Shown here: positions 30,685 to 64,000 of the stretch, one piece after another
How positions within the stretch are numbered: position 1 is the first letter of the stretch
Layout: the number at the start of each line of letters is the position of its first letter
Assembly: GCA_949289005.1 (NCBI GenBank)
Contig: CASEMQ010000033.1
Span: 1,472-65,471 of the forward strand
Length of the DNA stretch: 64,000 bases
DNA from: an uncultured Lentisphaeraceae bacterium
Lineage (GTDB): Bacteria; Verrucomicrobiota; Kiritimatiellia; RFP12; DVOR01
Reading direction: 5' to 3'
Position numbers and translations under genes: made by a program
The notes under the pieces: model-generated
The model's database searches: none
What the model was told of the DNA's origin: nothing
What the model saw: the letters and a program-made list of their open reading frames with translations, nothing else

Positions 30685-30850
30685 TGTCGATAACTTTCGC
30701 GAACCTGTTGAAAACCTGTCGAAGGTTTACCGACCGCGAGGTCTCTCAAATCGCGATTTTCAATCTATACAAGGGGTCGTTTTCCGGGATGCGCCGTACC
30801 TCACATCGAAACACGCCGCATCCCGGGGGGAGAGACGCCGCGATCCAAAA
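30685..30850. repeat. Copy A of a ~165-bp dispersed intergenic element
   Basis: Shares CTTGTCGATAACTTTGCGAAACCTGTTGAAAACCTGT, TTTTCAATC and ACACGCCGCATCCCGGGG blocks, in the same order, with 49318-49480. Confidence 0.75.
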
Positions 30851-49317: not shown

Positions 49318-49480
49318 CTTGTCGATAACTTTGCGAAACCTGTTGAAAACCTGTTGAGAGCGGGCGGGGCCCAAAGGGGCGAAAAACCCCTTTTCAATCA
49401 GGGAGCGGGGTCATTTCCCGAGACACGCCGTATCGCTCCCCGAGACACGCCGCATCCCGGGGCGAGGCACGCCGCGCCCC
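49318..49480. repeat. Copy B of the ~165-bp dispersed intergenic element
   Basis: See 30685-30850. The same conserved blocks occur in the same order and orientation, again upstream of a minus-strand gene. Confidence 0.75.
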
Positions 49481-51620: not shown

Positions 51621-51765
51621 GGTCTCGCTCCTTTCTGTCGCTCGCGCGAATCGTGAATCGTAAATCGCGAATCGTTTTGTCGGTGGGGCTCCGCCCCACG
51701 CCCTTTCGGCTTCTCCGTCGCCCCGAAGGGGCGGGACTATTTACCAATTACCATTTACCAATTAC
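51621..51765 (-). repeat. Junction element: GAATCG-type array + two GC hairpins + TTTACCA-type array
   Basis: CGAATCGTGAATCGTAAATCGCGAATCG (51647-51674). GTGGGGC-tcc-GCCCCAC. GTCGCCCC-gaa-GGGGCGGG (51717-51735). TATTTACCAATTACCATTTACCAATTAC (51738-51765), which runs over the stop codon of the upstream gene. Confidence 0.85.
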
Positions 51766-52817: not shown

Positions 52818-52942
52818 GGGGGGCTCCTTTCAGTCGCACGGAAGTTTGGAAGTTTGGAAGTTTGGCTGATTGGTGGCGCGCGGCAAGCCGCGCGACGGAC
52901 GGGTGCGTTCCAATCAGCCAAACCTCCAATCAGCCAATCACC
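52818..52942 (-). repeat. Junction element: inverted GGAAGTTT / CCAAAC arrays around a GC hairpin
   Basis: GGAAGTTTGGAAGTTTGGAAGTTTGGCTGATTGG (52840-52873), GCGCGCGG-caag-CCGCGCGA, CCAATCAGCCAAACCTCCAATCAGCCAATCACC (52910-52942). The arms pair over ~33 positions, including G-U pairs and a few mismatches. Confidence 0.85.
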
Positions 52943-53147
52943 GGCGCGCCGTCAGGCGCGCCATGAGTTCCTCCTCCAGGAGGGTGAAGCCCTTTGAGCC
53001 GGCGACGGCGCTCTTCCATTGCCGGAAGAGGAGGGCGAGCTGTGCGGCGGGGAGGCGGTGGAGGAGGTGGTGCAGCGGCCAGTGGTAGGTGCGCGCCGCC
53101 CACTCCGCCAGGGCGATCAGCCAGCCGTTGCCGGCGAGGCTTTTTTT
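52938..53147 (-). CDS. -1 frame extension of the chaperone-like gene (putative GT-like frameshift product, +67 aa)
   Basis: It has no start codon of its own. It is open from the A7 run to the TGA at 52938. GC3 is very high and the peptide looks natural (GNGWLIALAEWAARTYHWPLHHLL...). Confidence 0.5.
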   Translation of the reverse strand, partial: KKSLAGNGWLIALAEWAARTYHWPLHHLLHRLPAAQLALLFRQWKSAVAGSKGFTLLEEELMARLTARR

Positions 53148-53590
53148 GGCGCGTCCCCCTCCGGCCCCGGGAGCAGCGCGTAGAAGGCGCGGAGGGCCTT
53201 GAGGGCGGCGACCCAGCGCCGGGAGAAGTCGGCGGGCCTGAGGGTGTCGGCCCAGGCGAAGGCGTCCTCCGTCAGCGTCCTGAGGTGCTTGGCGCCCTGC
53301 GCGGAAGGCAGGCTGAGCAGGTAGAGCCCGGGGATGACGTCGGCGGCGGTCTGCTCGCCGCCGCCCAGCAGGGGGCTCTTGATCTTCTCCAGCAGGGCCA
53401 CCTGGCCGAGGGTGAGGGGGGCGGGGTCGGCGAGGGCGTCGAGGGCGGCCTGGGGGTTGCCGGCGGCGTTTTCGTGAATCGCGAATCGCGAATCGCGAAT
53501 CGTCTCGGGGTGGGGCTCCGCCCCACGCCCCTTCGGCTCGGTTGGCGCCCCCTGCGGGGCGTCCGGCTTGTCTGTGTCCGTTGCGTTCAT
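53117..53590 (-). CDS. Tail-assembly-chaperone-like protein (G-like, 157 aa)
   Basis: Sits directly downstream of the tube-like gene. GGAG RBS. Ends 22 nt after an A AAA AAA slippery heptamer. Confidence 0.55.
   Translation of the reverse strand: MNATDTDKPDAPQGAPTEPKGRGAEPHPETIRDSRFAIHENAAGNPQAALDALADPAPLTLGQVALLEKIKSPLLGGGEQTAADVIPGLYLLSLPSAQGAKHLRTLTEDAFAWADTLRPADFSRRWVAALKALRAFYALLPGPEGDAPKKASPATAG
53141..53147 (-). promoter_or_regulatory. Putative -1 programmed ribosomal frameshift site A AAA AAA
   Basis: Seven A on the coding strand, phased as X XXY YYZ in the zero frame (CCA AAA AAA GCC). Confidence 0.5.
53474..53502 (-). repeat. Inverted copy (28/29) of the CGATTCGCGATTCAC 29-mer, inside the chaperone-like CDS
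   Basis: GTGAATCGCGAATCGCGAATCGCGAATCG is the reverse complement of 53633-53661 with one mismatch. The two arms bracket the RBS and start codon. Confidence 0.9.
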
Positions 53591-53679
53591 TGCTTGTTCT
53601 CCGGTTGGTTTGTCGCGCGCTTGCCGCGCGGGCGATTCGCGATTCACGATTCGCGATTCACGGCGCGGCGAAGCCGCGC
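53591..53679 (-). repeat. Junction element with the CGATTCGCGATTCACGATTCGCGATTCAC 29-mer and GC hairpins
   Basis: 29-mer at 53633-53661, identical to the copies at 57673-57701 and 63829-63857. Flanked by GC hairpins (GGCGCGGC-gaa-GCCGCGCT on the 3' side). Confidence 0.9.
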
Positions 53680-54048
53680 TCAGGACGCGCTGGGCCAGTT
53701 CTCGTAACGTTCGAGGGTGAGGACGAGCTTGCGGAAGTCGCGGTTGCTCTCGATCTCGCGGCAGGAGAGGATGGCGAAGGTCTTGGTGCCGACGGTGAGG
53801 GTTTCGGTGCTCCCGGCGGAGAAGGTGGGGAGGTCGACGGTGGTGGGCGCCAGGAGGGTGGCGGTGACGGTCGTCTTCTTGTCGTAGTCCTGGCGGTGGA
53901 CCACGGCGCCGTTCTGGTCCTGGCAGTAGGCCACCTGGGTCTCGTCTGCGCACTCCCAGTCGGTGATGATGCACGTGGCGTAGTCGCCGCCAAGGGATTT
54001 GTCCACGCCCCAGCCGGGGGTCGTGATGTCTGCGGGGTTGGTTGCCAT
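53680..54048 (-). CDS. Small major tail (tube)-like protein, 122 aa
   Basis: Beta-rich and Thr-rich, of the size typical for siphovirus/GTA tube proteins. Sits immediately upstream of the frameshifting pair. The call rests on position and composition only. Confidence 0.45.
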   Translation of the reverse strand: MATNPADITTPGWGVDKSLGGDYATCIITDWECADETQVAYCQDQNGAVVHRQDYDKKTTVTATLLAPTTVDLPTFSAGSTETLTVGTKTFAILSCREIESNRDFRKLVLTLERYENWPSAS

Positions 54049-54215
54049 GGGGTTCACTCCTTTCGTTCGTTTCACTCACTTCAGTCGTTCGCGTGAACGG
54101 TTATCGGTTATCGGTGAACGGTTGGCGCTTCCGCGCCTGCCTTCGGTTTGTCTGTCGCCCCGCAGGGGCGAACCGTTCACCGTTCACCGCTTTCCGTTCA
54201 CCCACGCGCGGGGCG
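54049..54215 (-). repeat. Junction element: inverted CGGTTATC/GGTGAAC arrays around GC hairpins
   Basis: GTGAACGGTTATCGGTTATCGGTGAACGGTTGG (54093-54125), GGCGC-ttcc-GCGCC, GTCGCCCC-gca-GGGGCGAAC (54154-54173), GAACCGTTCACCGTTCACCGCTTTCCGTTCACCC (54170-54203). Confidence 0.85.
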
Positions 54216-55215: not shown

Positions 55216-55406
55216 GGCAGGCTCCCTTCGGTCGCCTGCGGAAGTTTGGAGGCTTGGAGGCTTGGAAGCTTGGTTTGTAACATCTCAATCTCGGTGCGCA
55301 GGGCGTTGAGTTCCTCCTCGTGGTCACGGTCGCGCATCATTGCGCTGATTGCCGCGGCCAGGAGAAAGCCGAGCAGGATGCAAAGGATAACGTCAAAGAG
55401 GTTCAT
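55212..55406 (-). CDS. Small single-pass membrane protein (64 aa)
   Basis: GGAAAGGAA RBS. N-terminal TM (ILCILLGFLLAAAISAMM) followed by a charged helix. The last ~15 codons are supplied by the CCAAGC array. Confidence 0.45.
   Translation of the reverse strand: MNLFDVILCILLGFLLAAAISAMMRDRDHEEELNALRTEIEMLQTKLPSLQASKLPQATEGSLP
55240..55273 (-). repeat. GGAAGNTT-type tandem array (solitary)
   Basis: GGAAGTTTGGAGGCTTGGAGGCTTGGAAGCTTGG. Confidence 0.85.
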
Positions 55407-55578
55407 GCTTGCATTCCTTTCCGATTTATGCGATAGTAAGGGCGTTCTTCAGGAAGGGCCGAAACGGCGGCGATGCTTCCTGACGGGCTATCGTGGGGCC
55501 GTCCCCGCTTGATACACTTTGGAAGGACGTAGGTGCCTTCCCTACCCCTTGGCGGCCGCTTCGGCGGTCGCCTTTTCT

Positions 55579-56772
55579 TTATGCGAAGTGCCATCCCGAG
55601 ACCTTTCCCGTGTTGTGGTAGACGTAGACCTTCAGCGTGTGGCGCCCGTATCGTTCTGTGTAGACCGCTTGCGTCCCCGGCGGCGGATCCAGATAGTCCG
55701 GCGTCGTCCCGTCCGGGAACTTGAGCGTGCGTTCCCCGTGCTTGACGGCATGGATGGCGGCGGGGAGCCACTCCAGATTCTCCGGCTTGGGGGTGTTGTC
55801 CTTCCGCCTTTGGCCAAAGCGATAGTGGTCACGGGCAAAGCGGTCGAAGCGGATGGCCCTGCCGTCTGAGCTCTTGACCGAGAATCCGTCATTGAGTGCC
55901 CGTTCGGCCTCCTGCCGCGAGCATTTACCCTTGTGTCCCACAATGGGGGATTTGCCCTTCGTTCCGCCATGTCTCGGGTCGTGGCACTCGCCGTCCTTGT
56001 CTAGGAAGGAGCCGTCCTGCGGGCATTGCTTGGCCTTGTTTCGGATGGCGCGGAGGGTGAGGGCGGTGATGAGGAGGGCGGCGGCGCGGCGGGCGGCGCG
56101 GTTGGTGGCCTCGCCGAGCAGGCCCAGTTCCTTGGTCTCGAGGCGGTCGACGTGGACCCAGGCGTAGGAGGAGCCGAAGGCGAAGGGCGGATAGGGGTTG
56201 CCGAGGGTGTCCCGGAAGCCGCCCGCGCCGTCGCCCAGCGCCTGCCAGATGGGGGAGGATTTGAGGGCGACCATCTTGGTGCGGTGTGCGCCCTGCCAGG
56301 CGACGCGCTCGCCGGCGGCCTTCCAGCGTTGGGGCCAGTCGGTGCGGTGGTGTTTGCGGTAGCCGGTGCTGAGCAGCTCCCAGGCGGGGAAGAGGGCGGC
56401 GACCTGCGGGTCCTCGCTCTCGGCCAGCCGGGCCAGCGAGGCGGCGGTCTTTTGGTTGGTGTCGAGGACGAGGTTGAGGCGCGCGAGGGTTCGGGCGTCC
56501 TTGAGCGTCCCTTCCGTGCCGGGCTCGGGCGCGTAGCCGAGCTGGGCGAGCGTGTCGGTGAGGGCGAGGCGCGCGGCGGAGGCGTCGAGCGTGCCGTCGG
56601 CCACCTGCATGAGCACGGCCTGCACGCGGTCGAGGTAGCCCTGGAGCGTCATGCGCGCGGAGAAGAGGGCCTGCTCGCGCAGGCGCTGGGACCAGCGGGC
56701 GCGGATGCCCGCGGTGTCCAGCGCCGTGGGCGTTGGGGTCTTGAGGCCGATGATCTCCGCGACGGACGGCAT
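55579..56772 (-). CDS. MuF/SPP1-gp7-like minor head protein (tentative) with ~150-aa basic C-terminal extension
   Basis: Central region YRKHHRTDWPQRW ... NPYPPFAFGSSYAW resembles the MuF core. The C-terminus is His/Lys/Arg-rich. CGACTGAAAGGAG RBS context. Confidence 0.4.
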   Translation of the reverse strand: MPSVAEIIGLKTPTPTALDTAGIRARWSQRLREQALFSARMTLQGYLDRVQAVLMQVADGTLDASAARLALTDTLAQLGYAPEPGTEGTLKDARTLARLNLVLDTNQKTAASLARLAESEDPQVAALFPAWELLSTGYRKHHRTDWPQRWKAAGERVAWQGAHRTKMVALKSSPIWQALGDGAGGFRDTLGNPYPPFAFGSSYAWVHVDRLETKELGLLGEATNRAARRAAALLITALTLRAIRNKAKQCPQDGSFLDKDGECHDPRHGGTKGKSPIVGHKGKCSRQEAERALNDGFSVKSSDGRAIRFDRFARDHYRFGQRRKDNTPKPENLEWLPAAIHAVKHGERTLKFPDGTTPDYLDPPPGTQAVYTERYGRHTLKVYVYHNTGKVSGWHFA

Positions 56773-56941
56773 GGGGTGCTCCTTTCAGTCGCACGGTAAA
56801 TGGTAAATGGCAATTGGTAAGTGGTGGTTGGTGGGGGTGGCACGGCCACCGCGGGATCGCCCCACGCCCCGGCGACTTCTTTGTCGCCCGTCAGGGCGGG
56901 GCTATTTACCATTTACCATTTACCATTTACGAATTGCCATT
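56773..56941 (-). repeat. Junction element: inverted GGTAAAT / ATTTACC arrays around GC hairpins
   Basis: GGTAAATGGTAAATGGCAATTGGTAAGTGGTGG (56795-56827), GTCGCCCG-tca-GGGCGGG (56883-56900), CTATTTACCATTTACCATTTACCATTTACGAATTGCCATT (56902-56941, covering the last codons of the upstream gene). Confidence 0.85.
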
Positions 56942-57232: not shown

Positions 57233-57373
57233 GGTGTTTCTCCTTTTGGGTGGAAGTTTGGAAGATTGGAGGCTTGGAGGCTTGGGTTGCGCGACGGATG
57301 AAACCGCGGATCTCGCGGATTTTGGCAGATTTGGGGCGTGCTGCCGCACGCGGGACTGCCAGTGTGGGAAGGC
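57233..57373 (-). repeat. Junction element: GGAAGNTT array + palindromes + conserved 35-bp box
   Basis: GGAAGTTTGGAAGATTGGAGGCTTGGAGGCTTGGG (57252-57286), CCGCGGATCTCGCGG, and the box GATTTGGGGCGTGCTGCCGCACGCGGGACTGCCAG (57328-57362). Confidence 0.85.
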
Positions 57374-57616
57374 TCAGTCGGCGTCGAGGAGTTCGAGCAT
57401 GACGGAATCGGGGACGAACCATCCGGTGGCGCCGTCTTGCATTTCCACGTAGACGCGGTGGCCCTGCGGGTCGGGGTCCTGCGGTGCCACCGGCACCACC
57501 TCGCGGTCGGCGGGGACGACGGTGTAGGTGGTGCACCCGGCGTAGGTCAGGCAGGCGAGAAGTCCGCCCGTCGCGGCGAGCGCGATGAGGAGGAGGTTGA
57601 GGGCGCGGTCGGTCAT
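57374..57616 (-). CDS. Small lipoprotein (80 aa)
   Basis: Signal peptide with lipobox-like LLAC/YAGC. Pro/Asp-rich mature part. CCACTGAAAGGAG RBS context. Confidence 0.6.
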   Translation of the reverse strand: MTDRALNLLLIALAATGGLLACLTYAGCTTYTVVPADREVVPVAPQDPDPQGHRVYVEMQDGATGWFVPDSVMLELLDAD

Positions 57617-57701
57617 TGGGTTCTCCTTTCAGTGGAACGGAAGTTTGGAGATTTGGAAGGTTGGAGGCTTGGCGATTCGCGATTCACGATTCGCGATTCA
57701 C
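57617..57701 (-). repeat. Junction element: GGAAGNTT array directly abutting the 29-mer CGATTCGCGATTCAC array
   Basis: GGAAGTTTGGAGATTTGGAAGGTTGGAGGCTTGG (57639-57672) followed by CGATTCGCGATTCACGATTCGCGATTCAC (57673-57701). The stop codon of the upstream small ORF lies in the last repeat unit. Confidence 0.9.
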
Positions 57702-57865
57702 GGGCGCTTGGCGCCCCTCCTTTCCTGGAGGATGCGGTTCATTTCTTTGCGGTCGTGGGTGGCGACGGCGCGGCGGGCCTGGTTTGCGCGGACCGTGCGG
57801 CGGCCCTGCAGCCAGGCCGCGAGGGCGAGGCAGAGGGCGTGCAGGATGTCGAGCAGCTTGGTCAT
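57698..57865 (-). CDS. Small protein, 55 aa (hydrophobic N-terminus, basic C-terminus)
   Basis: Not in the ORF track because it is under 60 aa. AGGAGG lies 6 nt before the ATG. The ATGA overlaps the stop of the upstream gene. Translation: [23 protein letters not shown]... Confidence 0.5.
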   Translation of the reverse strand: MTKLLDILHALCLALAAWLQGRRTVRANQARRAVATHDRKEMNRILQERRGAKRP

Positions 57866-59013
57866 GGGGTCTCCTCCTGGGTGGCGAAGGGCGGGTAGGG
57901 CGGCGCCTTGCCAGGGTTATGGCGGGGCTTGGCGGAGGCGCGTGCGGAGAGGGTGGTGGTGGCCGTGGGGAATAAGGAGTGCTCGTCGTGGGTGAGCTCG
58001 CTTTCGGGGATGAGGCCTCGGCGAGCCATCTCGGCGGCGTCTCGGGCGCGGATGGTCTGGAGCTCCGCGTCGGTGAGCAGCCGCCGGAAGCCCTTCCCGC
58101 CCCAGAGGCGGTAGGTGACGTCGAGCCCATTGTAGGTTCTTGGGCGCGTGCAGAGGAAGGGGAAGACGGTGGCGGGCGCGGGGAGGGCGTCGGCCCCGTA
58201 GAGGGGGAGGGTGACGGTGACGTCCTCCTCGGCCGTGCGGCAGCCGTCGGGGTAGTAGGCGCGTGCGCGCACCGTGGCCACCTGGTTGGTGACGGCCACC
58301 TGCAGCGTCGCCATCCCCCACTGCGAGGCCAGCAGGATGGGGGAGGAGTCGCCGGCCTCCTTGTAGCCGAGGCATTCGGTGAGGTAGCAGCGCACGAGCT
58401 TGGGCGCGGCCACCTCCAGCGTCCACGAGCCCGTGGTCGTGAGGGTGAGCGGTTTGCCGTCCCGCACCGTCAGCGGCACGCCCAGGTGCGTCCCCGCCGC
58501 GTGGGTGTTGGCGTCCATGAAGCCGCCGTCGAGCGTCGTCTCCTCCGAGCAGGTCAGGTTGTAGGCGATGTTCCCCTGGCGGATGGGATACGCCTCCGAG
58601 CCCGGCACGAAGCAACCTTCCGGCCAGGGGTCTGCCCACGTCTTGCTCCCCGTGCCGCTCTCCGGGCCGATGAAGGTGGTCCCCACGGCCTTGCCGATGG
58701 CCTCGTCGGGGACGTGGAAGAAAATCGGGAACCAGTAGCTGTCCGAGCCGTCGAGGTTGGCCCAGACCACGAAGGTGGCCTCGGTGATGGGGGCTTCGGC
58801 GCGGAAGAAGCCGCCCGTCTGCCAAGGGAAGTTCTCCGCCCCGGATTGGGCGTTGGCGAAGGTGTCGCCCACCGTGGCCGGGCCCATGAGGGTGGGCTCC
58901 AGAACGGGCGTGCGCAGGAGCGGCACCTGCCCCTCCGCGCCGAAAACGAATGCGGCCGGCGCGCCCAGGCCGATGAGCGCGGTGGCGGTGAGGCAACGGA
59001 ACACGTCAAACAT
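57862..59013 (-). CDS. Signal-peptide-bearing protein of unknown function (383 aa), translationally coupled to the fibre gene
   Basis: AGGAGG RBS. N-terminal signal-like [20 protein letters not shown]. Overlaps the fibre gene stop by 8 nt. Confidence 0.65.
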
Positions 59014-60751
59014 TGGAATCCTCCTTCAGGATTGGGGTCAGGTAGACCATGTCGCCCACCTTGTAGGCCGTGGCGTGGTAGGTCGCGCCCGCCTCCAGCG
59101 TCGCGTAGCCCACGATGCGGATGTTGTCGCCCACGCCGGTGAAGGCCGCGGGGAGGACGAGGCGGACGAAGAGCTGCGCGCCGTCCGTCCATCCGGTGGC
59201 CGAGGCCGTGAGCGTCGCGCCGGTGGGCGAGACGGTGAGCATGGAGCAGGCGTCGTGCCATTGGATCACGTTGTCGCTCTGCGCGGTGTCGGCGGGCAGA
59301 TCTACGTAGAGGCCGTCGGTGCCGCACTTGATGCCGCCGCCCGAGCGTAGGGCGACGTTCAGTTGGTTGGGGCTGACGGTGGTTTTCAGCCCGTTCCCCA
59401 CTCGGAGCTCCAGTCCGTCCGTGCCGATCCCCAGACCGGCCGGATAGAGCTTCAGCGAGAGGACGCCCTCCGCGCTCTTCTCCAGCCCGTCGCCGGCGGT
59501 GACGGATGCGTCGTCGCCGGGGTCACCCTTGTCCCCCTTGGGGCCTTGGGGCCCTTGGGGGCCGGTCGCGCCTTGTGGCCCCGTGTCGCCCGTGTCGCCC
59601 TTCGGCCCCTGCGGCCCCTGCGGGCCGGTCGCGCCGTCCTGCCCGTCGGCGCCGTCCTTGCCTGCGGGGCCTTGGGGGCCGGTGTCGCCGGTGTCGCCCT
59701 TCGGGCCTTGGGGGCCAACCTCGCCTTGGGGCCCCTGCGCGCCGTCCTGGCCGGGGTCGCCCTTGTCGCCTTTCTCGCCCTTTTCGCCTTGGGGGCCTTG
59801 GGGGCCGGGGGTGAGCTCGATTTCGTCGATGGCCTGGCGGATGTCGGCGTGGGCGTCGGCGGCGCGGTTGTGGGCGACAATCTTGTTGGCGACGTCGAGG
59901 ATGCGGGCGATGCTCTCGTCGAGCTCCTCGCCGGCGGGGGAGAGGACGTAGACGCGCGCCGGCGTCACCCCGTCGGCCGCGTGGACGGTGATGGCGCGGG
60001 CCTGGAAGAGGGTGGCGCCCCGGAGGTCGGCGACGCCCTGCCCCGCCTGCGTGCCGATGATCAGGCCGCCGACGCCGCCCTGCTGGACGAGGATGGCCCA
60101 GAGCCCCGCGACGTCGAGCGGCGTGGCGCGCGCGGGCTGGGCGGGATCGTAGAGCCCGACGTAGCGCAGGTCGGCGCGGACGAGGGTGAGGGCGCCCACC
60201 TGCTCGGCGGTGACGGCGTGGGGGTTGTCCGTGCGCGTGGCGTGGGCCTCGATGGCGTCCCCCAGCTTGTCGAGTTCGGATTCGGGGAGGAGCTGGGCGG
60301 GGGTGAAGCCTGGGCTGGGGGCGAGGTCGAGGGTGCCGTAGGCGCGGAAGGAGGCGCCGCCGGGGGTCTCAAGGGCGAGGAAGAAGCGGACGCGGTCGGC
60401 GCCCGTGTCGCAGTCGGGCCCCCAGTCGGCGGAGAGCTCGCCCGTCGCGGGGTCGTAGGCGCCGGCCTTGGCGTACCATTCGTCCTCGCCCATGCCGTCG
60501 GTCTGCCAGCGGAGGGCGACGGCGCCGCCGGAGAGGCCGGTGAGGGGCGCGCCATACTGCAGCGGCACGCAGGCGAGGGTGAAGGTCTCGCCGTGGAAGG
60601 CGCGCGCGCGGAAGGGCTTGGGGGCGCTCACCTCGGTCTGCCAGGCGAAGCGCAGGGGCGCGGAGGGAACCGCCGATCCCGCGGATTGGGTGCGGATTTG
60701 GGGCGTGCTGCCGCACGCAGGACTGCCAGATTGATTGATGTTTTCTGCCAT
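59006..60751 (-). CDS. Collagen-like-repeat fibre protein (581 aa)
   Basis: 33 uninterrupted G-X-Y triplets (nt 59510-59806). [14 protein letters not shown] motif, common in phage fibres. GGAG RBS before the ATG at 60751. Confidence 0.75.
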
Positions 60752-60814
60752 CGGTTTTCTCCGTCGCCCGTCAGGGCGTTGCCAAGCTTCCAAGCCTCCA
60801 AACTTCCAAGCTTC
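60752..60814 (-). repeat. Junction element: GC hairpin + CCAAGCTT-type array
   Basis: GTCGCCCG-tca-GGGCG (60763-60778), then CCAAGCTTCCAAGCCTCCAAACTTCCAAGCTTC (60782-60814), the inverse of the GGAAGNTT arrays. Confidence 0.85.
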
Positions 60815-61245
60815 TAGTCGAGGATATGGTTGTGGGTGACGGAAATCTGGGGAGTGGGGAGGGCGACGGCGTCGGGGGCCTCGAGGTTTTCGTTCTCGGG
60901 CGGGGCGTAAGAGACCTTGGCGAGGGCGTCGCGGACGGCCATGGCGCGGTCCCACTCGGCCACGCGGCGCTCGTCGAGGAGTCCGCGCATCCCCGGCAGG
61001 CGCGTGAAGGCGCGGTAGCGGAAGTCGGCCAGGACGTGGATGAGGATCTCGCTGGGCACCGCGTCGGTGCGCTTGTCGAGGGCGGTGACGCGGCGGAGGC
61101 CGCCGCGCCAGTCCTCGGCGACCTCGTGGGCGATGGCCGCGAGGGGGGCCTCCTGCCCCCAGCCGGCGGCGGCGTTGGCCAGCGCGTCGTGCTCGGGGGC
61201 GGAGAGGCGGCTCAGCAGGGTGTCGGCGGTGAGGATTTGCCACAT
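60814..61245 (-). CDS. DUF1320 (Mu gp36-like) head-tail connector protein
   Basis: 143 aa. The N-terminal [12 protein letters not shown] pattern and the position right after the capsid gene are typical of the family. Confidence 0.6.
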
Positions 61246-61372
61246 ATGCTCGCTCCTTTCAGTCGCTCGGTTGTCGGTTTTGGGTTTTCGGTTTTCGGTT
61301 GGTTTGTCGCCCCGCAGGGGCGCAACCGGCTACCGATGGCCGTCAACCGACGACCGGGGCGCGAAGCGCCCC
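61246..61372 (-). repeat. Junction element: inverted CGGTTTT / AACCG arrays around GC hairpin
   Basis: CGGTTGTCGGTTTTGGGTTTTCGGTTTTCGGTTGG (61268-61302), GTCGCCCC-gca-GGGGCGC (61306-61323), CAACCGGCTACCGATGGCCGTCAACCGACGACCGG (61323-61357), GGGGCGC-gaa-GCGCCCC. Confidence 0.85.
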
Positions 61373-62333: not shown

Positions 62334-62750
62334 TCAGAGGAGGCCGCGTTCGATGGCGGCGCAGCGCTCCTCGGGGGAGTTGCAGGCGGCCAGGGGGTTG
62401 GCGGGGGCGGCCGGGCGGCGGGCGGCGGCGGCGTTGCAGACGGGGCGCGCGGCGGGGGCGGGCGCGGGGGCCTTGAGGCAGGCGAGGGTGGCCTTGACCG
62501 TGTCGCGGTTGGCCACGTAGAGGCGCTTGAAGGCGTCGCGGTTGGCGATCTTGTCCTTGTTCTCCTCGGCGACGGCGTCGGCCTCGGCGTTGAGCGCCGC
62601 CTCCTGCGCCTGCGCGACGGTCTGCGCGAGGCCTTCGGCGGCCTGGATGATGGCCGCGTCGTCGGCGTCGGGGCCGAGGCCGAGGATCTCGAGGAGGCGC
62701 GCGCGGAGGTCGGGCGCGGCGGGGGTGGGTTCGGTGGTGTCTTCGTTCAT
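62334..62750 (-). CDS. Scaffold protein, nested in frame in the 3' part of the protease gene (Mu gpZ-like arrangement)
   Basis: Internal ATG at 62750 with its own CGACTGAAAGGAG context. Acidic/Ala-rich helical peptide (LAQTVAQAQEAALNAEADAVAEENKDK). Confidence 0.6.
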   Translation of the reverse strand: MNEDTTEPTPAAPDLRARLLEILGLGPDADDAAIIQAAEGLAQTVAQAQEAALNAEADAVAEENKDKIANRDAFKRLYVANRDTVKATLACLKAPAPAPAARPVCNAAAARRPAAPANPLAACNSPEERCAAIERGLL

Positions 62751-63383
62751 GGTGGGGTTTCTCCTTTCAGTCGAAACGGTTTGAGGTTGTCGGTTAAAAG
62801 TTCGTTCGCTTCGCTCACTGTCGGTTGGTTTGTCGCCCCACAGGGGCGAACCGAGAACCGTCAACCGAGAACCGTCAACCTGCCCGGGAGCCCGATTCAT
62901 AATCGGGCGGACGGGCAGATTGGGCTTGTTGGTGAGGCCCACGGAGACCAAGCGCACGGGGCGGCCGTGTGGGTCGAGCTCCCAGACGGGGGAGAGGAAG
63001 CGGAGGCGGCGGTTGGAGACGGCGTCGGCCCCCGCGTCGGTGAAGCGGAAGGTGGCCATGAGGCCCTTGGCGGGGTCGACGCGCACGCGCTGCACCCAGG
63101 CCGCCGCCTCGGTGTCGCCGCCGGTCTCGGCGTGGTGCTCGAAGTCGACGAGGACCTCCGGGCGGAAGTTGGCCACCACGGCCTCGAAGGCCGCCCGGTC
63201 GCACCGCTGGATCACGCGCTCATCCCCGCGCAGGCCGGGATAGTTCCCGTAGGGCGAGAGCTGCACCTCCAATTCCGCGCCGGCCTTGAGGCCGCCTTGG
63301 GAATTGGGGAGAACGGCGAACGGCGAGCGGTGAGCGGTTCGCCCCGCCGGGGCGTCCAAATCGTCTCTGTCCAACGCATCCAT
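62334..63383 (-). CDS. Mu gpI-like prohead protease fused in frame to scaffold
   Basis: The N-terminal ~190 aa resemble Mu-like prophage protein I (FEHH ... AAAW ... RFLSPVW ... GLTNKPNL). There is no stop before the scaffold part. GAAGGA RBS before the ATG at 63383. Confidence 0.65.
   Translation of the reverse strand: MDALDRDDLDAPAGRTAHRSPFAVLPNSQGGLKAGAELEVQLSPYGNYPGLRGDERVIQRCDRAAFEAVVANFRPEVLVDFEHHAETGGDTEAAAWVQRVRVDPAKGLMATFRFTDAGADAVSNRRLRFLSPVWELDPHGRPVRLVSVGLTNKPNLPVRPIMNRAPGQVDGSRLTVLGSPLWGDKPTDSERSERTFNRQPQTVSTERRNPTMNEDTTEPTPAAPDLRARLLEILGLGPDADDAAIIQAAEGLAQTVAQAQEAALNAEADAVAEENKDKIANRDAFKRLYVANRDTVKATLACLKAPAPAPAARPVCNAAAARRPAAPANPLAACNSPEERCAAIERGLL
62751..62917 (-). repeat. 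Junction-type element embedded in frame in the protease-scaffold linker
   Basis: CGGTTTGAGGTTGTCGGTT ... GTTCGTTCGCTTCGCTCACTGTCGGTTGG, GTCGCCCC-aca-GGGGCGAA (62832-62850), GAACCGAGAACCGTCAACCGAGAACCGTCAACC (62849-62880), and the CCCGATT-cat-AATCGGG hairpin. Confidence 0.85.
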
Positions 63384-63525
63384 CGTTCGTCCTTCGCTCC
63401 GTTCACCGTTCACCGATAACCGTTCACCGATAACCGCGGGCGACAGCCCGCCTGTTCATGCCCACAGTGTCGCACAGGGCCCGGGGCGACTGAAGGGTAA
63501 CTCCCGCAACTCTGCCAGGTTTGGC

Positions 63526-63668: not shown

Positions 63669-63738
63669 GGGGTCTCGGCGGCGGCCGCCGCCGAGACCCC
63701 GTTGCAAAGGCCCTTGCAAGCGTTGCAAAACGTTGCAA
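63669..63738. promoter_or_regulatory. Perfect 32-bp palindrome followed by 4x TTGCAA (candidate operator array)
   Basis: GGGGTCTCGGCGGCGGCCGCCGCCGAGACCCC (63669-63700). TTGCAA at 63702, 63714, 63723 and 63733 (spacings 12, 9 and 10). Confidence 0.5.
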
Positions 63739-63828
63739 AGATTTTCCGCGTGGGATTTTGCCTCCCGCCCTCCCCGGCGCGTCTACGGGGCGTTCTCGCG
63801 GGTGTGTGCGCGGCGTCCCGCCGCGCGG

Positions 63829-63857
63829 CGATTCGCGATTCACGATTCGCGATTCAC
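63829..63857 (-). repeat. Third identical copy of the 29-mer CGATTCGCGATTCACGATTCGCGATTCAC
   Basis: Exact match to 53633-53661 and 57673-57701. It contains the stop codon of the upstream gene. Confidence 0.9.
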
Positions 63858-64000
63858 CGCGCCTGCCCGCGGCGGGACGCCGCGAGCAGGCGCTCCCGGA
63901 TGCCGGAGAGGCGGGCGGAGAGGGCGTGGCCCTTGGCGTTGCCGGAGGCCCACCGCTCGCGGTGGGCGCGGAGGGCGTCGAGCAGGCGCCGCTCCTCCGC
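63854..64000 (-). CDS. 3' end of an upstream phage gene (start lies beyond the right window edge)
   Basis: The minus-strand frame is open from the window edge to the TGA at 63854 (..AEERRLLDALRAHRERWASGNAKGHALSARLSGIRERLLAASRRGQAR). Its identity (portal?) cannot be told from 48 aa. Confidence 0.5.
   Translation of the reverse strand, partial: AEERRLLDALRAHRERWASGNAKGHALSARLSGIRERLLAASRRGQAR

Follow-up and report, generated by a model that had tools for sequence, protein, structure and literature searches.

A complementary pair of tandem arrays around a start codon in a Mu-like prophage: probably one modular junction element absorbed into a gene as its leader

The window analysed here is a stretch of 64,000 nucleotides (nt) from an uncultured Lentisphaeraceae bacterium. 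At 53473-53662, in the late region of a Mu-like prophage, it carries an inverted repeat whose arms lie on either side of the ribosome-binding site (RBS) and start codon of a chaperone-like gene. The initial annotation took these arms for a built-in long-range switch on translation initiation of the gene or, alternatively, for a junction element that had been absorbed into the open reading frame (ORF). Our analysis favours the second possibility: the arms are probably the G- and C-type tandem arrays of one modular junction element, which the gene has taken up as an N-terminal leader, and not a conserved switch. As judged by comparison of sequences, the arms belong to a family of such elements, the 3' half of the element is translated as a neutrally evolving leader, the segment between the arms is portable between genes, and the pairing of the arms is not conserved.

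The inverted repeat itself is real, and the two 29-mers first noticed fall within arms of 30 nt (53473-53502 and 53633-53662), which a repeat search found to be complementary at 29 of 30 positions (97%) and separated by 130 nt. The sole non-Watson-Crick position between them is a G.U on the minus-strand transcript. On this strand the stop codon TGA of the upstream gene is followed by a small hairpin, the upstream arm, CGCGCG-GCAAG-CGCGCG+AC, GGAG, ATG, two GC hairpins and the downstream arm (Table 1), which confirms that the GGAG RBS and the ATG at 53590 are enclosed by the arms. At other junctions, C-type arrays are preceded by the second of these two GC hairpins (GTGGGGC-GGA-GCCCCAC), which is conserved. 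When 53440-53700 (minus strand) is folded, a 30-bp stem is predicted, with a minimum free energy (MFE) of -136 kcal/mol compared to -104 +/- 5 kcal/mol for shuffled sequences (z = -6.2). The loop of the predicted stem holds three small GC hairpins, and both GGAG and AUG are essentially unpaired in this 130-nt loop in the MFE and the centroid structures. The energy of the arm duplex is -57 kcal/mol, compared to about -20 kcal/mol in the related locus L009. Measured against random sequence the repeat exceeds chance: with 2 or fewer mismatches allowed, the window has 16 occurrences of the 14-mer CGAATCGCGAATCG (1.5 expected). Random sequence is nevertheless the wrong null, because both arms are tandem arrays of low complexity that belong to a repeated family. 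Identical copies of the upstream-arm 30-mer stand at 57673-57702 and 63829-63858, and one of complement type is found at 51647-51675. The three 100%-identical 30-mers (that at 53633-53662 included) have differing flanks, and sister phages have other array types at these places. Such identity within one phage suggests homogenisation within the genome. It is at these 30-mers that the Logan unitigs of the source run break.

The same junction can be compared in related loci (given by L numbers), which come from uncultured Kiritimatiellota or Ca. Spyradenecus metagenome-assembled genomes and from chicken-gut metagenomes. Most homologues are without any element here: L007, L001/L002, L012, L014, L015 and L016 have neither an upstream module nor an in-ORF arm. 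The upstream GAATCGC array and hairpin are present, with no in-ORF arm, in L005/L006, and the reverse arrangement, an in-ORF hairpin and GATTCGC array with no upstream module, is found in L003, L004, L010, L011 and L144. L009 (96%), L141 (99%, from an independent sample) and L142/L143 (73%), where the percentages are protein identity to the chaperone-like protein of the window, carry the in-ORF GATTCGC array together with a GGTAAAT-type upstream array that is not complementary to it. Only the window combines the in-ORF GATTCGC array with a complementary upstream GAATCGC array. A complementary partner is thus present in one of the four lineages that have the in-ORF arm. This is the outcome that the initial annotation had itself named as refuting the switch: homologues keep the protein and the in-ORF arm and not the complementarity. 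The RBS and AUG are also left uncovered in the predicted fold. Compensatory changes were sought in the homologous clusters, where the upstream arrays turned out instead to be non-complementary or absent. Between the window and L141 the upstream module is swapped with sharp boundaries, a hairpin, array and hairpin-GCGAC being exchanged between TCCTGA and CCAACCGGAG. L142/L143 have the same stop-proximal hairpin as the window (GCGCGGC-TTC-GCCGCGC), attached in their case to a different type of array. These alignments show that the pairing is not conserved for this gene and that modules are exchanged between near-identical phages.

The element extends the chaperone-like protein at its N-terminus. 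We found 37 homologues, 33 of which are ~115 residues long and cover only the C-terminal ~72% of the query, beginning MSDNPQ or MSNPQ. Most of the homologues begin 2-3 codons ahead of the conserved NPQAALDAL, just past the position of the arm; the N-terminal extension is confined to the clade of the window, where the array is translated as DSRFAI(R/H)DSR. The initial annotation allowed that the true start might lie downstream of 53474. From 53590 up to the conserved core, however, the frame contains no ATG, GTG or TTG, the first candidate further downstream (V64) comes only after the nearly invariant TLGQ block, and relatives (L005, L009, L141 and L142) share the start ATGAACGCAACGGAC. We therefore assign the start to ATG 53590. 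Since this codon lies inside the loop of the element, the 3' half of the element is translated as a leader of 44 residues. Compared to L005, in which MNATDT is followed by AANPPQ, the window has an extra in-frame segment of 105 nt that consists of the two hairpins and the C-array, and 53545-53474 is near-identical to an intergenic element at 51700-51647. AlphaFold, run with the family alignment, gave a predicted local distance difference test (pLDDT) score of ~40 for residues 1-44 and >90 for the core, residues 46-138. The ratio of non-synonymous to synonymous polymorphism (pN/pS) was 0.237/0.232 for the leader, i.e. about 1, and 0.094/0.279 for the core (the latter excluding the comparison of the window with L014, where an indel misaligned the codons). 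The leader thus behaves, in structure prediction and codon comparison, as a disordered and neutrally evolving segment that would be dispensable for the fold. The near-identical intergenic copy, the shorter homologues and the disordered, neutral extension all support the view that a junction element was absorbed into the ORF.

The sequence between the arms, comprising RBS, ATG and ~40 codons, recurs at the 5' ends of unrelated genes in sister phages: at the collagen-like fibre gene of L014, at a fibre gene of L010 and at a gene for a 101-residue protein in L005 (Table 1). The hairpin of this cassette is invariably read as (D/A)APQG, in the same reading frame, which indicates movement of the cassette as a whole. 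Further arrays, too, are read into ORFs. In L001 (3010-3090 and 4350-4420) and L011 (4315 and 5977) a hairpin with CTCCGTT-type arrays occupies the 5' ends of called ORFs and encodes hydrophobic, signal-peptide-like segments, e.g. MKTATPVALLGALFSVLCSPFSALA; here repeat DNA seems to have been recruited as a targeting sequence. In the window a complete element lies in frame within the ORF of the Mu-like protease (62334-63413), at 62750-62874 on the minus strand, with a G-array (62874-62848), the hairpin GCCCCTGTGGGGCGAC, AACCGA-type repeats, GACTGAAAGGAG at 62772-62761 and, at 62750, an internal ATG. The element separates the protease domain (residues 50-173) from the C-terminal (scaffold) part, and the latter is probably also started at the internal ATG, an arrangement that resembles, by analogy, nested protease and scaffold genes.

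The arms belong to a dense family. Tandem Repeats Finder (TRF) and our own scan detected ~20 arrays of period 7 or 8 at 51.6-64 kb, i.e. in the ~13-kb late-gene cluster, and essentially none in the first 47 kb of the window, which are chromosome of the host, an uncultured Kiritimatiellota of the chicken gut (pyruvate formate-lyase (PFL), Dxr, AspRS, RecD2, GH84, Lnt, trigger factor). The part rich in arrays belongs to a Mu-like prophage, as its late region, and encodes a prohead protease of the Mu-like kind, a major head protein and a collagen-like fibre; Portal_Mu and Mu Gam are present in relatives. Nearly all gene junctions of this prophage carry a copy of the element. L001, L005 and L009-L014 have array numbers comparable to those of the window. 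At least seven unit types, octamers included, occur in one cluster (GAATCGC, GGTAAAT, GGTGAAC, GGTTATC, CGGTTTT, GGAAGCTT-like and GATTGGCT), and copy number varies, the ATTTACC type having 4-5 copies in the window and L009 as against 9-14 in L012-L014. Arrays are the same within a genome and differ between genomes.

We read the anatomy of the junctions from the minus strand at each junction of the window and from the flanks of all arrays in 13 loci. The basic unit is a tandem array of ~28 nt, made of a 7- or 8-nt motif, with a GC hairpin and GAC. Stops, which often lie in a small hairpin, are followed by a G-type array and then by a GC hairpin ending in ...GCGAC. Starts are preceded either by the reverse complement of this (GTC-hairpin and C-type array) or by a GGGCGTGGGGC-N3-GCCCCACC hairpin and a G-poor C-type array; the C-array is followed by the RBS block GACTGAAAGGAG, 5-7 nt and ATG. 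The usual junction accordingly reads: stop, G-type array, GC hairpin-GAC, spacer, complementary C-type array, GACTGAAAGGAG and ATG, with a polarity of the hairpin-GAC that is constant across arrays. The RBS block GACTGAAAGGAG occurs 6 times, each time on the minus strand ahead of a start, as compared to 0.23 expected. G-type arrays adjoin stops (23 of 39, versus 7 of 63 for the C-type; p = 4e-7) and C-type arrays adjoin starts, lying no more than 35 nt upstream of a coding ATG (32 of 63, versus 4 of 39 for the G-type; p = 3e-5). Solo arrays ahead of starts are mostly G-poor C-arrays, and in some relatives (L012, L013, L014) the C-array abuts the ATG with no Shine-Dalgarno (SD) sequence. Neighbouring arrays are complementary (score of at least 10) in 78% of 27 cis pairs, compared to 24% of 240 trans pairs from the same genomes (p = 5.5e-9). 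Since complementarity in cis is common in the family, the pairing of the arms in the window is the default state of a complete element.

These observations allow the following explanation. The gene would initiate at the RBS and ATG in the spacer between the two halves of the element, and the hairpins and C-array would be read as a leader. On the late polycistronic mRNA the arms may form a duplex of ~30 bp (about -57 kcal/mol) that leaves the RBS and AUG exposed in the 130-nt loop. The most likely consequence in this phage would be some damping of chaperone expression, either through the need for ribosomes to unwind the 3' arm or through cutting, in codons 30-39, by a double-strand-specific RNase. 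As regards the entire family, strand-specific placement suggests roles at the RNA level: the elements would most likely be intercistronic RNA modules, with G-poor C-arrays serving as unstructured leaders by starts and G-arrays with hairpins as 3' trailers by stops. The arrays themselves were probably generated and homogenised at the DNA level by slippage and gene conversion, given the lack of wobble bias, the identity within genomes and the rapid turnover.

Several points weigh against this explanation. Over 24 cis pairs the mismatches on the sense strand are 39 G.U and 57 A.C, i.e. without preference for G.U, and in 18 of the 24 the fold of the antisense strand is equally good or better; the missing tolerance of sense-strand G.U weakens an RNA-level role of the array family. 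The L014 and L010 copies at fibre genes keep complementary arms around an internal ATG, and a 'start-in-loop' function may exist. The history may have run in either direction: an L005-like gene may have gained the C-module by insertion, or a start further downstream may have been lost. Only the sample of the window itself showed the two-armed state. The metatranscriptomes X11, X17 and X21 consist of assembled contigs that break at arrays, so their depth and ends are uninformative.

A lesser, though real, possibility is that the arrays are purely selfish or mutational DNA, produced by slippage, arm-to-arm gene conversion or a mobilising enzyme, spreading from junction to junction, devoid of RNA or protein function, merely tolerated, and translated by accident. 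L013 and L014 form a clean filled/empty pair, the one such pair examined: a complete GGTAAAT...ATTTACC x9 element upstream of ATG, bounded by CTGAA and GAAAGG, is opposed to CTGAC followed directly by GAAAGG, with no evident duplication. The sharp-edged swaps of modules between the window and L141 or L142, copy numbers from 4 to 14, array identity within genomes and difference between them, the absent wobble bias on the sense strand and the neutral leader all fit such an origin. Among the long simple repeats of bacteria, moreover, heptamers are the most common, and slippage has been proposed as their source (PMC4679880, PMC4692102). Against such an origin stand the strong strand specificity of placement at stops and starts, the solo arrays before starts, which are mostly G-poor C-arrays, some of them in place of the Shine-Dalgarno sequence, the constant polarity of the hairpin-GAC, and the extreme density of arrays, restricted to the late operon. 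Neither a transposase nor a target-site duplication was seen at the compared loci; no search was aimed at RAYT.

Less probable is that the inverted repeat acts as a strain-specific RNase III site, at which the 30-bp duplex would be cut, the tube and chaperone mRNAs separated, and the latter inactivated at codons 30-39, lowering the chaperone:tube ratio. Tail chaperones are required in far lower amounts than the tube protein, and this piece of general phage biology agrees with the proposal, as does the near-perfect 29/30-bp duplex that is predicted. Cleavage by RNase III at the paired terminal inverted repeats (TIRs) of Correia elements is also documented (PMC10969869). The pairing, however, is not kept in the closest relatives, and the family shows no sense-strand wobble signature.

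A dedicated long-range switch, in which selection for pairing on the mRNA would have shaped the arms so that they gate initiation of the frameshifting chaperone gene, is very unlikely. The predicted 30-bp stem, stable as it is relative to shuffled sequences, does surround the RBS and ATG, the single mismatch between the arms is a sense-strand G.U, and the fibre copies of L014 and L010 likewise have complementary arms around an internal ATG. Yet the RBS and AUG are not sequestered in the predicted fold, the arms are nothing more specific than copies from a family (the window holds the identical 30-mer three times), and, as described above, the three closest lineages with an in-ORF arm lack the complementarity, other loci with this arm lack the upstream partner, and most homologues are free of the element.

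We regard as still less plausible that the leader M-x-A-T-D...DAPQG...DSRFAI is a functional peptide tag under selection, or that the in-ORF array serves phase variation as a slippage ON/OFF switch. The same leader does occur in the same frame on three unrelated proteins, and slippage by 7 nt in either direction would shift the frame of the ORF; but a leader with pN/pS of about 1 that is predicted to be disordered and is absent from most homologues does not look like a selected tag, and the copy number of the in-ORF array is constant, at ~4, among all relatives, with no out-of-frame variants seen. Least probable of all is an assembly artefact, in which the thrice-repeated 30-mer made a chimeric tube-arm-chaperone join and with it a false complementarity: the Logan unitigs of the source run do end and start inside the upstream arm and no second two-armed sample was found, but the arm has unique sequence on either side, the join yields the tube-to-chaperone order of all relatives (a conserved gene order that argues for a correct join), the corresponding junction of L005 has a GAATCGC-type upstream array and shares the CGCGCGGCAAG(C)CGCGCGAC hairpin, and the stop-proximal hairpin of the window is also found in L142.

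Table 1. Features of the chaperone-like gene, its inverted repeat and related junction elements (positions refer to the window unless a locus is given)
Feature	Position or locus	Strand	Description
Chaperone-like ORF, 157 residues	53117..53590	-	conserved helical core, residues 46-138
Element-derived N-terminal leader, residues 1-44	53459..53590	-	absent from most homologues
Slippery A_AAA_AAA run	53141..53147	-	-1 frame extension to TGA 52940-52938
Stop-proximal GC hairpin GCGCGGC-TTC-GCCGCGC	53663..53679	-	immediately 3' of TGA 53682-53680
Upstream arm	53633..53662	-	G-type tandem array GAATCGC/GAATCGT x4; 18 nt past stop of upstream gene
GC hairpin CGCGCG-GCAAG-CGCGCG, then AC	53612..53630	-	'hairpin-GAC' half of G-module
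RBS and start codon	53588..53602	-	GGAG 53602-53599, 8-nt spacer, ATG 53590-53588; all within loop of element
Two in-ORF loop hairpins	53510..53560	-	GCCCCGCAGGGGGC (53560-53547, read D-A-P-Q-G); GTGGGGC-GGA-GCCCCAC (53526-53510)
Downstream arm	53473..53502	-	C-type array GATTCGC x4; codons 30-39, TIRDSRFAIH, ETIRDSRFAIHEN
Sister junction element	51648..51765	-	GGTAAWT array, hairpin-GAC, GGGCGTGGGGCGGAGCCCCACC, GATTCRC array, GACAGAAAGGAG, ATG
Junction element 3' of chaperone/frameshift ORF	52840..52940	-	GATTGGCT-type 8-mer array, hairpin, CCAAACTT array, GACTGAAAGGAG, ATG
Junction element 5' of 131-residue 'tube' gene	54098..54202	-	GGTGAAC array, hairpin-GAC, AACCGTTCACCGATAACC array
Canonical complete element	56795..56941	-	GGTAAAT x5, hairpin-GAC, GGGGCGTGGGGC..., ATTTACC x4, GACTGAAAGGAG, ATG
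Further arrays	57258..57702	-	GAATCGC G-array (57672-57702) abutting CCAAnnTT C-array; solo C-array 57258-57285 before RBS and ATG
Elements flanking 143-residue gene	60782..61350	-	CGGTTnn/AACCGAA pair (about 61350-61267); GAAGCTTG array and hairpin-GAC (60814-60782)
Cassette at collagen-like fibre gene	L014		arms 27/27, loop 130 nt, MDTSDANALAAPQGASDEPTGRGAEPHPEAIHDSRFTIR...
Cassette at fibre gene	L010
Cassette at 101-residue gene	L005		MQATDTATPDAPQGRD, then array-encoded residues

The initial annotation was right in assigning a frameshift site to the chaperone-like gene: the A_AAA_AAA site is conserved, as CCA AAA AAA GCC in the window, L001, L009, L007 and L014 and as A_AAA_AAC in L005, and so is the extension in the -1 frame, which reads KKSLAGNGWLIALAEWAARTYHWPL... 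and is present in all relatives. Its 'tube' and 'chaperone' labels are supported by gene order and the frameshift, and by no match to a family or fold. Neither the chaperone-like protein nor the 131-residue protein encoded upstream of it matched Pfam or PHROG, and Foldseek searches against PDB and BFVD returned no significant match. The gene after the chaperone-like ORF encodes 351 residues and had no family match in the region scanned. A search of IMG/VR with the chaperone family gave one distant locus, L008, which is without the elements.

Other explanations of the junction sequences were considered and set aside. The junction hairpins are not canonical intrinsic terminators, because the U-runs are missing; a terminator scan gave 14 sites, with 11.8 expected. 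Arrays acting as promoters or activator sites were rejected, since C-arrays directly adjoin the RBS or ATG and a search for sigma-70-like promoters gave none. Inspection also disfavoured cassettes flanked by their own complementary arrays, as the 5' C-array of a gene does not match its 3' G-array. An origin from host REP sequences was rejected for the host region of the window, which is array-free. An Rfam scan of 51-64 kb (E of 1 or less) gave no match at the junctions, and the hairpin core GGGCGTGGGGCGGAGCCCCAC was without match in IMG/VR.

A few further features of the window were recorded. At 63700-63765 on the minus strand four TTGCAAC/TTGCAAG copies are spaced ~10-13 nt apart (TTTGCAACGTTTTGCAACGCTTGCAAGGGCCTTTGCAAC), and 3' of them come a perfect 14-bp GC hairpin, array elements and the sole clear minus-strand intrinsic terminator (63545-63533); the repeats look like a candidate protein-binding or regulatory region ahead of the head genes. 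An atypical intergenic stretch of lower GC, free of arrays, separates the genes for the 397- and 64-residue proteins (55406-55600); it contains a plus-strand terminator-like hairpin with a T-run (55551-55572) and a weak, sub-threshold Rfam match to suhB/mmgR (55497-55587, E = 0.49). Near the probable boundary of prophage and host, at 49336-49475, there are long non-coding gaps and short direct repeats (AAACCTGTTGA x2 and a 22-mer x2.7); farther from it, AACCTGTCGAA x2 is found at 30702-30723. The dense 9- and 18-nt tandem periodicity at 59520-59810, in ORF 59006-61243, is that of the collagen-like Gly-X-Y repeats of the fibre (Pfam Collagen, residues 519-577).

Sequences like the arms are not confined to these phages. 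The arm motif CGATTCRCGATTCRCGATTC is found in at least 120 metagenome contigs with GC contents from 32% to 76%, and a complementary array lies no more than 300 nt downstream, mostly 7-110 nt away, in 42 of the matches listed. Array-dense contigs are ordinary chromosomes, encoding CTP synthase, Mfd, PolA and ComEC. In the environmental contigs L020-L139, inverted pairs of heptamer arrays with short loops stand at gene ends (e.g. L083 7042-7130 and 8848-8924; L030 1681-1779 and 4548-4661; L122 3084-3166). There are many unit types per genome, and several pairs are bracketed by A- and T-runs, like bidirectional terminators. We found no description of environmental inverted heptamer-array pairs, nor the sequence GATTCACGATTCAC, in the searchable literature.

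Tentatively, and with more doubt than belief, we propose that Mu-like phages of Kiritimatiellota carry undescribed array-hairpin elements that work as programmable intercistronic RNA modules and donate an RBS, start and leader to genes, the chromosomal heptamer-array hairpins being their cellular counterpart. On this proposal G-poor leader arrays would drive or tune initiation and paired arms would insulate or process cistrons, while complementarity of the arrays would be maintained in cis, and arrays would be made uniform inside each genome and traded from one genome to another.

The elements have practical consequences for annotation, because they are open in all frames and sometimes genuinely translated: starts and N-termini in these phages are easily mis-called. 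Assemblies break, or may mis-join, at the identical 30-mers. The dense and polymorphic system (~20 arrays in 13 kb), with its strand-specific placement and natural swaps, also makes array function testable, and the window-, L141- and L003-type 5' regions of the same gene amount to a natural allelic series. In evolutionary terms, non-coding repeat DNA has here turned coding, giving rise to N-terminal leaders, signal-peptide-like segments and an inter-domain linker.

Among known systems, the geometry recalls the fold-back inhibition of IS10 transposase and the MS2-type long-distance interactions, in which an upstream segment pairs near or in the 5' coding region. Those pairings cover the RBS or AUG and are conserved, whereas in the window both stay within the loop, and related loci do not keep the pairing.

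The arrays themselves resemble the heptanucleotide arrays of bacteria, which, common as they are, have no established function and for which slippage and S1/CSP protein binding have been proposed (PMC4679880, PMC4692102). Like the short tandemly repeated repetitive (STRR) sequences of Calothrix and Nostoc and the 'long simple sequence repeats', they are head-to-tail 7-nt units in anything from a few to tens of copies, many per genome and mostly intergenic, and as in other heptanucleotide arrays their length differs between related strains by 7-nt steps. The TAACTGA arrays of Beggiatoaceae lie a few nt from starts, often in the place of the SD sequence, and the GGGAATC repeats of Xanthomonas have inverted arrangements able to form stem-loops (PMC4679880, PMC4692102); similarly, some C-arrays in our loci (L013, L014, L012) stand at starts without SD. 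Unlike the known arrays, those described here are phage-borne and not chromosomal, comprise at least seven unit types, 8-mers included, in place of one dominant heptamer per genome, and are coupled to GC hairpins-GAC in complementary pairs across junctions, with fixed polarity and repeatedly within ORFs.

Cluster K mycobacteriophages provide a phage parallel. Their start-associated sequences (SAS) are, like the block GACTGAAAGGAG, a phage-specific asymmetric SD motif before some starts (there the 13-bp GGGATAGGAGCCC), and about half of them have imperfect inverted repeats, separated by a spacer that varies, ahead of them (extended SAS, ESAS), for which a translational role is suspected (PMC3203893). 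ESAS have 17-bp arms and a genome-wide consensus conserved per gene family; our elements, in contrast, have varying tandem arrays that turn over between near-identical phages. Translation of ESAS is not reported (PMC3203893), whereas elements of the family described here are repeatedly read into ORFs.

Translation in frame is instead shared with the Rickettsia palindromic elements (RPE), repeat copies of which lie in frame in unrelated genes, leave these genes intact and encode a peptide compatible with the fold (PMC10969869). RPE form defined families of ~150 bp in a bacterial chromosome and have no sequence relationship to our elements, which, unlike them, supply the RBS, start codon and leader and have tandem arrays as arms. 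With Correia, ERIC, REP and REPIN sequences our elements share a short intergenic form, inverted termini able to pair in the transcript and presence/absence polymorphism between strains (PMC10969869; bioRxiv 10.64898/2026.03.23.713779). Correia TIR duplexes are cut by RNase III, and REP and ERIC affect mRNA stability (PMC10969869; bioRxiv 10.64898/2026.03.23.713779). These families, however, have one conserved terminal sequence for a transposase or RAYT, with target-site duplications in the MITEs (miniature transposable elements with inverted repeats), whereas here arms differ by copy and halves are exchanged independently; and REP and REPIN spread through the host chromosome, while none of our elements occurs in the 47 kb of host DNA that the analysis covered. 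The element family is thus a variant of both heptamer arrays and palindromic intergenic repeats, so far poorly described and worth a dedicated description.

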